This document shows positions 35,438 through 37,996 of a stretch of 64,000 nucleotides of DNA, in pieces. Source of the DNA: a virus (taxonomy: Duplodnaviria; Heunggongvirae; Uroviricota; Caudoviricetes); the IMG/VR virus record IMGVR_UViG_2839610755_000002; one strand, given 5' to 3'. Numbering within the stretch: position 1 is the stretch's first letter; each line of letters begins with the position of its first letter. A program made the position numbers and the translations under genes. A model generated the notes under the pieces. The model saw nothing but the letters and a program-made list of their open reading frames with translations, did not search any database and had not been told where the DNA came from.

Positions 35438-36139
35438 TTATTCTGATTCTCGCTCAAAAAATGAGCTGACAAGGGGAAGCCAATCCTCTGACACTTCGCG
35501 AGGTCGCGGTTTGCCGTGGAAAAAGATTATTCGGCAGTCTTTTGGTAATGCCCCATTCCCCCTGGAGTAACGCGCGCTCGCATATTTTGAACCAGGTTCC
35601 ACAACATCGGCCTTGTAACTTACAAACCATCCTGGATACAGATCCTGAAATGCTGGTGTATCATCGCCCATAACCTTCCGTAAGAACCCCTGATCACCCC
35701 AGCACTCAGTAGTGACACAACGAGAAATCCAACCTTCCGGATCTTGCCAGAATGAACTCCAGATATGCGCTTTAACACTATTTGGTATCCACAGGGCACC
35801 GCTGCCACGATATTGTGGATGGTAAAAATCCCTAAGCATGGTGAAGCTGGTTGGTGGATGCTCTAGGATTGGGCGTATATCACCGGCAATAACCGTGTCC
35901 AAATCCAGATAGAACAGATCATCGGTTATATCCGGTCGGAACAACTCGATTTTCGCCCACCAGCCACGGCACTTTTGCCACTGGTTGATCAATGGGACAA
36001 CTTTGACGCCAGGTACATGTAAACGCTTCAGGTCTGTCAGGCAAATAATTTCATAGCCTTTTGGCAGTTGATTAACCAGCCACTGCACATCGGAAGCGTT
36101 ATAGTCACCACCAGAGCGAAAAACTAAAGCAATCTTCAT
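35438..36139 (-). CDS. hypothetical protein (possible sugar/nucleotide transferase-like)
   Basis: 233-aa ORF overlapping the ppp stop; no firm motif. Confidence 0.3.
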
Positions 36140-36828
36140 GCTGCACCATCACCTTTCACTTTCATCAATGTCAGGTTTCCGCAAAATACGGCACCAGTGT
36201 CGATATACTGCTGATTCCAGAATGTCTTCGGGCTTTTCACCGGAGTGTGACCAAAGATAAAACGATCTGCGCCCGAAATTTCGCCACCAATATCATCCAT
36301 CGAATCACTGATACGCTCGCGCGCCCAGACAACGTTGAAAAGCGGCACCTCCTTACCGAATTGGTATTCATTATCCGGATAGTCGGCATGGGCTATAACG
36401 ATAGTTTCTTGCCCGGTGTTCAACTCAATGATATAGGGCAGACGCTTTACCAGCTCCACCAGCGCCCTGGCTAATATTTCCTGATCAGTGTCCAGCATGA
36501 AGAACCATTGTCCGCCATTCATTAGCCAGTTATTCACGTTGCCATCTGGACTTAACGCATCAATCATCAGCCGCTCATGGTTCCCCATCACTGCCCTGAA
36601 CCAGGGCATCTGCAATAGTTCCAGACATTCGACATTTTCAGTACCGCGATCGATAAGGTCGCCGACCGATATCAGTAAATCCTGCGCCGGGTCAAAATCC
36701 ACACGATGGAGTTCGGACATCAGTCTGGTGTAGCAACCATGCAGATCACCAACAACCCAGACATTCCTGTATTTGGTACCGTCGATACGGTGATAAATTG
36801 TGGGTGCCATCATGTATTCTTCAGCCAT
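36136..36828 (-). CDS. ppp: Ser/Thr protein phosphatase (lambda PPase-like), Ppp
   Basis: Metallophosphatase motifs GDLHG, GDLIDRG, GNHE. Confidence 0.8.
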
Positions 36829-37436
36829 TCTTTAAGAGTCATCTGCGGAATACCTCCCATTTTCCCGCATGAAACAACGTCAATCTGTTCACGCGCAGAC
36901 TGGAATAACAAAGGCAGGTGACTTAGATTTTTTGGCGTGCCGCCGGAATGAACGCGTGGTTCTTGCGTAGCGTCAACGCCCACCAGGGCTACATGTTTGA
37001 ATCCGATATGGAAAGCCAGGTTCAGAGCACCATATGCACTATTGCCGCTGGCAATTTCATTCTCATCTTCGCAAAGGCCGAAATGTGCGGACCAGCGCCA
37101 CGCCCACCACTCGGGAGAATTCGTATTTTTTGGCTCCGTGCCGCGCTCAGCCACACGACGGAAGCACAAAACGCCGTCTCTGACCTCACGTTCTTTAACA
37201 TCGGGTAGCGCCATGCAATAACAAACACCACGGCGACGGCGGCCACGACCAACGCGCCGCATATTGTCTGGCGATGGATCAAGGGTGAAAAAATAAGAAG
37301 CGCGGTTAAGCCAGTCGATGGCCCCATTGACCGCTATAATCGGCACTCCGCGCGGCGCAACAAAGTTTGCGGCGCTTGGGCCACTGCCGACGATAATAAC
37401 GCGATCACTGCCTCTAAATTTATTCTTGGGAAACAT
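36810..37436 (-). CDS. DUF115-like (GxGPS motif) protein, paralog 1
   Basis: IIVGSGPSA...IIAVNGA...LVGVD; paralogous to 37334..37996. Confidence 0.4.
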
Positions 37437-37996
37437 TGAATTGCACTGCTCCTACTTGCATTCAAAATATGTAAATCTGCGTGTTTTTTGCGGGTATCCA
37501 GGAACTGCTGTTGCCATTTTGAAATAGACACCTGCGTTGGATTCCGTAGAGCTTGAGGGTGCGCACCATGCCAATGAAGGCCGTTTTGCAGAGAACAGTC
37601 ATAGCCGACTAATACCACTACTTCAGCCCCTGATTCAGCCGCCAGACTGATAGCCTGCGCGCCGCTATTTACCCCTTCCGCCGGTCCACAATATCGCCTG
37701 TACTCCAACGAAAATGATTTCGCCGCCGCCAGGTTGGCTGTCACTTTGCGGAACCTCCCTCCCGGTATGGTGGAACCGTATTGCTTCCACCATGACAAAT
37801 CACCGGCGTATAAGGCATAAATGTCATCGAACATCTGCCAGGAATTGTTAACCGCGATGATTGAACAGCCAGTTTTTTCTATAGCAGCACAGTCCTCACG
37901 AGTGAGTGACGGACCGCTACCGACACAAAAAACAGTCCTAGTCGCCCTGGGTGGTATGTTCATTCTCAGCTGCAAATTCAGCCTCCAGGCGAGCAT
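37334..37996 (-). CDS. DUF115-like (GxGPS motif) protein, paralog 2
   Basis: FCVGSGPSL...IIAVNNS...LVGYD; overlaps paralog 1 in another frame. Confidence 0.4.
   Translation of the reverse strand: MLAWRLNLQLRMNIPPRATRTVFCVGSGPSLTREDCAAIEKTGCSIIAVNNSWQMFDDIYALYAGDLSWWKQYGSTIPGGRFRKVTANLAAAKSFSLEYRRYCGPAEGVNSGAQAISLAAESGAEVVVLVGYDCSLQNGLHWHGAHPQALRNPTQVSISKWQQQFLDTRKKHADLHILNASRSSAIQCFPRINLEAVIALLSSAVAQAPQTLLRRAECRL

Follow-up and report, generated by a model that had tools for sequence, protein, structure and literature searches.

A group of overlapping minus-strand genes in a 64,000-nucleotide stretch of tailed-phage DNA (Caudoviricetes; IMG/VR record IMGVR_UViG_2839610755_000002; henceforth the window) probably combines two unlike parts: a mobile glycan cassette encoding three predicted glycosyltransferases, PmgO, PmgP and PmgQ, and a phosphatase gene, ppp, that rides along as a passenger. 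By sequence, positions 35438-38093 are the known pmgN-pmgO-pmgP-ppp-pmgQ operon of phage P1. The P1 genome (AF234172 79388-82288) is 98.8% identical to window positions 35300-38200 over 2901 nt, and 19 P1-type phage records span all of this interval at 97.7-99% nucleotide identity (megablast). The locus is already catalogued and annotated in P1, and RefSeq uses the names 'alpha-2,3-sialyltransferase', 'glycosyltransferase' and 'metallophosphoesterase'. What is added here is the cassette concept, that is, a core of PmgP and PmgQ, an optional PmgO, a variable slot and a set of gene fusions. The genes are as follows.

38093..37938, minus strand: pmgN, 51 aa, GTG start after GGGAG, first gene of the unit (P1 annotation and open reading frame)
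37996..37334, minus strand: pmgO, 220 aa, predicted transferase of the DUF115 / Maf / GT42 fold
37436..36810, minus strand: pmgP, 208 aa, second predicted transferase of the DUF115 / Maf / GT42 fold
36828..36136, minus strand: ppp, 230 aa, lambda-type Ser/Thr protein phosphatase (metallophosphoesterase)
36139..35438, minus strand: pmgQ, 233 aa, predicted GT8-like retaining glycosyltransferase with GT-A fold and DxD motif

An earlier, sequence-only reading had described four overlapping minus-strand genes at 35438-37996, which the list of open reading frames confirms; it missed the small pmgN, a member of the function-less family phrog_2350 that overlaps pmgO by 59 nt. The overlaps it pointed out are real: pmgO and pmgP share 103 nt in different frames, and ppp is overlap-coupled on both sides, by 19 nt with pmgP and by 4 nt (ATGA) with pmgQ. 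Likewise present are the motifs it quoted, namely VVGDLHG, GDLIDRG and GNHE in Ppp, IIVGSGPSA and LVGVD in the 208-aa PmgP, and FCVGSGPSL and LVGYD in the 220-aa PmgO, and its suggested comparison with P1 pmgO, pmgP and ppp proved exact, since it is the same locus. Two start codons deserve comment. The annotated pmgO start probably lies too far upstream, with Met13 at 37960 as the candidate true start, because homologous proteins start only at about residues 7-20 and the predicted local distance difference test (pLDDT) score of residues 1-15 is below 50. For ppp, a start at Met6 (36813-36828) would create an ATGA overlap with the pmgP stop and fit the N-terminus of the lambda phosphatase more closely. 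No transmembrane segments were found in PmgO, PmgP, Ppp or PmgQ.

By sequence, PmgO and PmgP are ancient, diverged paralogues. BLASTP aligns the two proteins over 36 aa only (E 0.003). Profile-profile comparison of their families, made without the row of a PmgO~PmgP fusion protein that confounds the alignment, gives a probability of 98% (E 1.3e-13, 163 columns), which in global mode is 98.9%; the paralogy proposed from the letters is thus genuine but old. PmgO falls into phrog_4603 (E 4e-74) and PmgP into phrog_2111 (E 4e-132). Searched singly against PDB sequences, PmgO, PmgP and PmgQ returned noise only, and family profiles were required. Structure prediction, which had been proposed as a check, yielded confident AlphaFold models with pLDDT 86.6 for PmgO and 94.8 for PmgP. 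In Foldseek, the top and sole strong match of PmgO was the Maf flagellin glycosyltransferase 5MU5, at probability 1.0. The suspected DUF115-like character of the paralogues holds: they are homologous DUF115/MptE-like proteins, with Maf, MptE and Cst-I/II as best matches; both proteins show the fold of MptE and the Maf central domain, and Maf outscores MptE. Invariant His residues follow the GxD motif in both families (H141/H143 in PmgO, H173 in PmgP).

Fainter similarities extend to enzymes that handle keto-acid sugars. The PmgO profile touches Cst-I/II at a sub-threshold E of 0.13-0.6, at the GPSL and NSG..GxD motifs; the PmgP profile gave no match to the GT42 enzymes Cst-I/II. PmgP aligns weakly with the WaaZ family in hhalign (37% probability locally, E 3.5e-4; 74% globally, E 3.5e-6), and the global alignment lines up SGPS, IAVNG and GxD. 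The corresponding values for PmgO, also weak, are 24% in local mode and no match in global mode. These figures were obtained with a WaaZ family alignment built from a genome scan; the single E. coli WaaZ sequence gave 11-15% probability. A PmgO~PmgP fusion protein (P0051) carries a faint precomputed match to PF27901 (WaaZ_KDO_III). More distant relatives pass the threshold of PF01973 (P0259, 44.1 bits), and many carry precomputed matches to that family. Among aligned relatives PmgP is 50-78% identical (mostly 52-65%), and the named sources include gamma- and alpha-proteobacteria.

PmgQ is a predicted GT8-type retaining glycosyltransferase. It belongs to the glycosyltransferase family phrog_1962 (E 5e-128), and its family profile finds PDB entries 6MW5 (E 2.8e-6) and 5GVV (E 0.0036). 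Across 30 relatives, D79-L-D81, G148-D149 and H208-G-x-P211-R-P213 are invariant and Q150 is nearly so; the GT8 profile together with the DxD, GDQ and HxGxxRP motifs bears out the earlier description of the 233-aa downstream product as transferase-like. PF01501 matches 4 of the 30 relatives, with a best E of 0.026, and does not match the window protein.

To follow the genes through other genomes, hidden Markov models for PmgO, PmgP, PmgQ and Ppp were scanned over 166 fetched loci, and individual relatives were added by look-up. The IMG/VR scan was led by a distant family member, since it otherwise returned P1 copies only. The order O-P-Ppp-Q recurs in more than 140 P1-type loci, including relatives about 60% identical (L104, L121, L129). 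Elsewhere the genes occur in the following settings (O, P and Q for the three transferase genes, our locus identifiers in parentheses).

O-P-Q in lambdoid prophages, between the lysis genes and the small terminase (L005, L091, L093)
O-P-Q immediately behind the major capsid gene of a Pseudomonas HK97/D3-like prophage (L008/L089)
O-P, then the contig end, downstream of a major head gene, with a methyltransferase after P (L095)
P-Q in an Ochrobactrum prophage, after the head-tail adaptor (L007)
O-P-x-Q in P2-like prophages, after terminase and portal (L092, L094, L192)
P-methyltransferase-Q-O after a spanin (L096, L186)
O~P fusion, then Q, in a phage with a P22-type portal (L003)
P-Q in a lytic-type phage, beside a primase-like gene (L187)
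P-Q on a bacterial chromosome without phage genes (L188)
holin-Q-P-lysozyme(-Rz) in a Serratia-type remnant, with Rz in L190 and L191 (L006, L190, L191)

Between P and Q lies a slot of variable content, occupied by Ppp in P1 and elsewhere by a PF03407-like sugar transferase, a GT2 enzyme or an S-adenosylmethionine (SAM) methyltransferase. PmgP is the most conserved member of the set, and its family comprises 554 clusters among the 1.84 billion representatives searched. Natural fusion proteins from other phages or metagenomes join the same partners in several ways: O~P (P0051, L003 8001-9131), P~Q (P0220, P0293), Q~P (P0308), Q~P~SAM-methyltransferase (P0270) and methyltransferase~P (P0306). 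A phosphatase is part of none of the six multi-enzyme fusion proteins examined. Because of these Rosetta-stone fusions and the conserved neighbourhood, we propose that PmgO, PmgP and PmgQ work in one pathway. As read from these arrangements, P and Q would form the minimal core, O a frequent third enzyme, and the P-Q gap a slot for tailoring enzymes. In P1 itself, a single frameshift within the 103-nt pmgO/pmgP overlap would yield an O~P fusion; we considered programmed frameshifting there, as a route to a protein like P0051, and set it aside.

Some of the loci outside intact phages merit description. In L188, an intact PmgP-PmgQ pair (5001-6298) lies between a short-chain dehydrogenase and a TetR regulator, on DNA with the look of an enterobacterial chromosome and no phage genes within 5 kb. 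In L006, L190 and L191, the same LysR, GerE and fimbrial-usher genes adjoin holin-Q-P-lysozyme, an arrangement that resembles a piece of a phage late region that has been domesticated. PmgO/P/Q homologues also adjoin, or are interspersed with, genes for Big_1 / invasin-type inverse-autotransporter adhesins in L006 (1-2115) and L189 (428-10600), whose DNA shows no detectable similarity between the two loci. We set aside a link between cassette and adhesins, which was not seen in L190-L192; the proximity may be a hint at a protein acceptor or a coincidence.

Ppp has a different history. Its sequence marks it as a phage-type relative and not as the host enzyme PrpA or PrpB. It aligns over its full length with the lambda phosphatase (PDB 1G5B, E 3e-95), so that the original call of a Ser/Thr phosphatase stands and can be narrowed to the lambda type; it scores 59.5 bits against PF00149 (Metallophos; cut-off 21.5) and belongs to the NinI-like family phrog_246. 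Against the NCBIfam equivalog models for PrpA/PrpB (PRK11439 / PRK09968) it reaches 274 and 240 bits, below their cut-offs of 326 and 332. Ppp is absent from all 17 independent non-P1 cassette loci examined. In phage D6, a P1 relative, ppp lies among unrelated small early genes, without O, P or Q, and in lambda the same phosphatase occurs with no transferases of this kind. This distribution suggests an independently moving passenger in the P-Q slot that would take no part in the glycosylation chemistry.

The sequence-only reading had considered the control of the operon unclear. In P1, and by transfer in the window, the unit has its own annotated operator and promoter upstream of pmgN and a late promoter further up, and a terminator-like hairpin follows pmgQ. 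The control elements, from upstream to downstream of the operon, are listed here.

39075..39093, minus strand: LPpmgL, predicted late promoter upstream of pmgL-pmgM, P1 annotation transferred by coordinates
39044-39060: O26/Op82 operator, upstream of the operon (P1 annotation; sequence conserved)
38166..38192, minus strand: PpmgN, predicted sigma-70 promoter within the pmgM 3' end (P1 annotation; sequence conserved)
38137..38153, plus strand: Oppp (former Op83), C1 operator just upstream of pmgN (P1 annotation)
35420-35436, minus strand: OpmgRa, operator (P1 annotation and consensus match)
35384..35411, minus strand: hairpin resembling an intrinsic terminator, with U6 after it, located between pmgQ and pmgR and also between the two C1 operators
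35371-35387, plus strand: OpmgRb, operator (P1 annotation and consensus match)

Across the window, 17 sites match the C1 operator consensus, where 0.35 would be expected by chance. Oppp reads TATGCACTAATTAATTT in the window, is identical to P1 at 16 of 17 positions and matches the operator consensus at 13 of 17, and was missed by a search allowing three mismatches because of this low consensus match. With four differences from the 17-bp consensus and one from P1, it matches less well than any other operator in the region, so repression of the unit may be leaky. The operator pair that had been noticed near 35371-35436 is real, being supported by consensus matches as well as P1 annotation. It belongs, however, to the downstream pmgR-pmgS unit, for which OpmgRb, OpmgRa and the promoter PpmgR (35371..35436) are annotated, and marks the boundary of the operon under study. 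The hairpin between them (-13.4 kcal/mol, z -6.4; 0 of 200 shuffles fold as well in RNA folding) appears neither in the P1 feature table shown nor in a simple terminator scan, and its position after pmgQ implies that pmgN-pmgQ is a discrete unit. PpmgN went unreported by a simple promoter scan of the window. Around LPpmgL the window is 98% identical to P1, and this promoter is a possible source of late read-through into pmgN-pmgQ. Going by the annotation, the unit should be repressed by C1 in the lysogen.

From these observations we infer enzymatic activities, donors, order of action and acceptor as follows. In the lysogen, C1 bound at the upstream operator would repress pmgN-pmgQ; transcription would take place during lytic growth and end at the intrinsic terminator. 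PmgO, PmgP and PmgQ would be soluble cytoplasmic enzymes that together form one mobile glycan-building cassette. PmgQ would act as a metal-dependent retaining hexosyltransferase, probably with uridine diphosphate (UDP)-Glc or UDP-Gal as donor, whereas PmgP and PmgO, with their Maf / Cst / WaaZ-like fold, would transfer a keto-acid sugar activated by cytidine monophosphate (CMP). The likely donor is CMP-3-deoxy-D-manno-oct-2-ulosonic acid (CMP-Kdo), made by every host. The cassette phages carry no genes for the synthesis of sialic, pseudaminic or legionaminic acid and all their named hosts are Proteobacteria, so CMP-Kdo would be the one donor available everywhere; to our knowledge, E. coli K-12 makes no sialic-type sugars. 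In other phages the partner methyltransferases would cap the glycan. In P1 the corresponding slot would hold Ppp, outside the glycosylation chemistry.

Our best guess for the acceptor, offered tentatively, is a conserved glycolipid of the host envelope, namely the inner core of lipopolysaccharide (LPS), as for WaaZ and the GT8 core enzymes. The size and fold of PmgO and PmgP, which resemble those of WaaZ and Cst, and the role of GT8 enzymes in LPS cores point towards such a host target, as do the intact P-Q pairs that occur without virion genes (L188 and the Serratia-type remnant in three records) and the lack of transmembrane segments. The conservation of PmgP across phages with unrelated virions fits a conserved acceptor. 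P1, P2 and several other cassette carriers use LPS as their receptor, and a change to its core would alter the structure that P1 uses to adsorb. Several observations weigh against the cassette reading or, within it, against an LPS target. PmgO (23.4 bits) and PmgP (20.9 bits) stay below the PF01973 cut-off of 34.6 bits, PmgQ of the window has no Pfam match at all, and the WaaZ link is weak, at 24-37% probability in local mode. The closest solved relatives of PmgQ (Skp1 GalT, GlyE and glycogenin) act on protein-linked glycans and not on lipooligosaccharide (LOS). As regards LPS, the unit is C1-repressed in P1 and hence cannot serve lysogenic conversion, and at least six phage lineages pack the cassette tightly into late structural operons, where a change to LPS would come late.

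Alternatively, the cassette, expressed late, might decorate head or tail proteins with a short Hex/Kdo glycan, as mycobacteriophage glycosyltransferases do on capsid and tail-tube proteins; such a glycan might shield or stabilise the particle and be dispensable in laboratory plaque assays. We rank virion glycosylation second among the acceptors and regard it as rather unlikely, and the narrower proposal that O/P/Q is a widespread, so far unrecognised system that builds a Kdo-containing glycan on the phages' own virion proteins in Gram-negative systems, P1 included, as more doubtful still; in the latter, a hexose attached by PmgQ would be capped by PmgP and PmgO with residues derived from CMP-Kdo. 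The remaining weight falls on other targets or on chemistry other than glycosyl transfer. The genomic positions speak for a virion target: the cassette directly follows the major capsid gene (L008/L089; L095 for a major head gene), the head-tail adaptor (L007) or the portal (L092, L094, L192), and at these late loci there is no room for separate signals because the genes overlap or abut. The P1 cassette, too, lies in a late morphogenetic region, and the P7 record labels its genes hdmA-D, 'head morphogenesis'. Maf, the best structural match, is a protein O-glycosyltransferase, the nearest solved PmgQ relatives Skp1 GalT and GlyE work on protein-linked glycans, and the C1 repression of the unit in P1 as well as the lack of a knockout phenotype would be consistent with virion decoration. 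On the other hand, the acceptors would be unrelated capsid lineages (P1, HK97-, lambda-, P2- and P22-like), yet PmgP remains more than 50% identical to the P1 protein in every aligned relative. Intact P-Q pairs exist without nearby virion genes (L188 and the Serratia-type remnant), and the lytic-type phage of L187 has its pair among DNA-metabolism genes. The papers on the P1 virion proteome and the tail cryo-electron microscopy report no glycan, and neither looked for one.

PmgO and PmgP might instead be (pyro)phosphotransferases similar to MptE or thiamin pyrophosphokinase with a small molecule as substrate; PmgQ would then glycosylate their product or some unrelated target. The one Pfam family that the two proteins touch, PF01973, is indeed described as 'MptE-like'. 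We nevertheless think this improbable: PmgO and PmgP are consistently linked and fused to a GT8 enzyme and keep company with glycosyltransferases and sugar-type methyltransferases, Maf scores above MptE, the motifs align with those of Cst-II and WaaZ, and no pterin or thiamin genes lie nearby. Very improbable is the model originally proposed for this locus, in which Ppp, PmgO, PmgP and PmgQ form one protein-modification pathway, for example Ser/Thr dephosphorylation followed by glycosylation. Translational coupling in P1-type phages and the constant O-P-Ppp-Q order in their more than 140 loci argue for it; the 17 of 17 independent non-P1 cassettes without Ppp, the unrelated genes that fill the P-Q slot elsewhere, the six phosphatase-free fusion proteins, the setting of ppp in D6 and the lambda phosphatase argue against it. 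Of the coordinated module, then, the linkage of O, P and Q survives through fusions and neighbourhood, and the inclusion of the phosphatase does not. Glycosylation of modified bases in phage DNA against restriction, possibly with Kdo, can be set aside as exceedingly improbable for want of 5-hydroxymethylcytosine (5hmC)-forming genes: phage glycosyltransferases that place hexose, heptose or Kdo on 5hmC are described in a preprint (bioRxiv 10.1101/2023.12.21.572611), and the L187 P-Q pair adjoins genes with faint or weak Pfam matches to DNMK (dNMP kinase) and Thy1 (ThyX), but the methyltransferase/TET pair that forms 5hmC is absent beside the cassette in P1 and the other loci, the DNA glycosyltransferases with a fold described there (subclass III, including the Kdo-adding one) are GT-B enzymes like T4 beta-GT and not Maf/GT42-like, and P1 DNA, as is well established, is cut normally by restriction enzymes and protected by Dar (PMC9024508).

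Published genetics show the genes to be dispensable in the laboratory. A CRISPR interference (CRISPRi) screen found pmgO, pmgP, ppp and pmgQ nonessential, and a table in that paper lists their deletion as nonessential too (PMC10695390). In a deletion study, 24 of 29 P1 knockouts showed no plaquing or antirestriction defect, and the essential genes named are pmgA, B, C, G and R; PmgO, PmgP, Ppp and PmgQ are not among the virion proteome proteins listed in that paper (PMC9024508). For pmgN the data conflict: CRISPRi knockdown lowered plating about 70-fold and led to the label 'essential', whereas deletion was nonessential (PMC10695390). Simple polarity fails to explain this result, because knockdown of the downstream genes was without effect (PMC10695390). 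In our literature searches, no paper turned up in which pmgO, pmgP or pmgQ is given a function or which deals with phage DUF115 glycosyltransferases.

P1 is a workhorse of E. coli genetics in which about one fifth of the genes, these four included, are without tested function. Three 'putative morphogenetic' genes now become a defined, testable three-enzyme unit, and the cassette ranges over P1-, P2-, lambda-, D3- and P22-like phages. Should the product reside on the LPS core, it would bear on how phages manipulate their own receptor. Should it reside on the virion, phage glycosylation would extend to Gram-negative systems, which would matter for phage therapy and for immune recognition; a Kdo-containing virion glycan would be without precedent, both as a virion glycosylation system beyond the actinobacteriophages and as a use of Kdo on protein. 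That a genome scan led to a locus already catalogued and dispensable in the laboratory is sobering.

Beyond the operon, the window differs from P1 in other respects. Over positions 25001-50000, the best P1-type records cover just 65-71% of the 25 kb, and hundreds of Stx-converting and other lambdoid phages share some part of this interval at 90-99% identity. The partial P1 coverage together with the lambdoid matches indicates that the window is a mosaic P1 variant and not P1 itself. ARAGORN finds four minus-strand tRNA genes at 49543-51810 (Met/CAT, Thr, an 87-nt Tyr and Asn); reference P1 is annotated with three (Asn, Thr and Ile-CAU). The tRNA-Tyr call may be an extra gene or an over-prediction.

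Compared with known systems, the locus is closest to the P1 operon (AF234172 / NC_005856) and to hdmA-hdmD plus ppp of P7, with which it shares genes, order, overlaps, operators and promoters at 97.8-99% nucleotide identity. Only point differences separate the locus from the P1 operon, such as one base in Oppp, and the terminator hairpin after pmgQ is missing from the P1 feature tables shown. Ppp has all metallophosphoesterase motifs of the lambda phosphatase PP-lambda / NinI (1G5B), but its N-terminus as annotated is slightly longer and it sits in a glycosyltransferase cassette instead of the nin region. With GT8 enzymes (Skp1 alpha-GalT 6MW5, GlyE 5GVV, glycogenin, WaaO/WaaJ), PmgQ has DxD, GDQ and HxGxxRP-type motifs in common, and with its 233 aa it falls far short of the length of the LPS-core enzymes WaaO and WaaJ. 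Maf proteins (PF01973; 5MU5) of about 600 aa carry extra flagellin-binding domains, whereas PmgO and PmgP are bare catalytic domains of about 200 aa. In this they resemble Campylobacter Cst-I/Cst-II (GT42) and E. coli WaaZ (GT73, Kdo III), which are likewise small and single-domain, have the same fold and act on LOS/LPS cores with CMP-activated keto-acid sugars as donors; the matches of PmgO and PmgP to these enzymes are sub-threshold and at the level of motifs. Unlike in the Cst setting, the hosts make no CMP-sialic acid, and Kdo would take its place for PmgO and PmgP. Mycobacteriophage virion glycosylation, familiar from the general literature and from genome announcements, offers the nearest organisational parallel to O/P/Q, with accessory glycosyltransferase genes near structural genes that are dispensable for plaque formation; the mycobacteriophage sets draw on other enzyme families in Gram-positive-type hosts.

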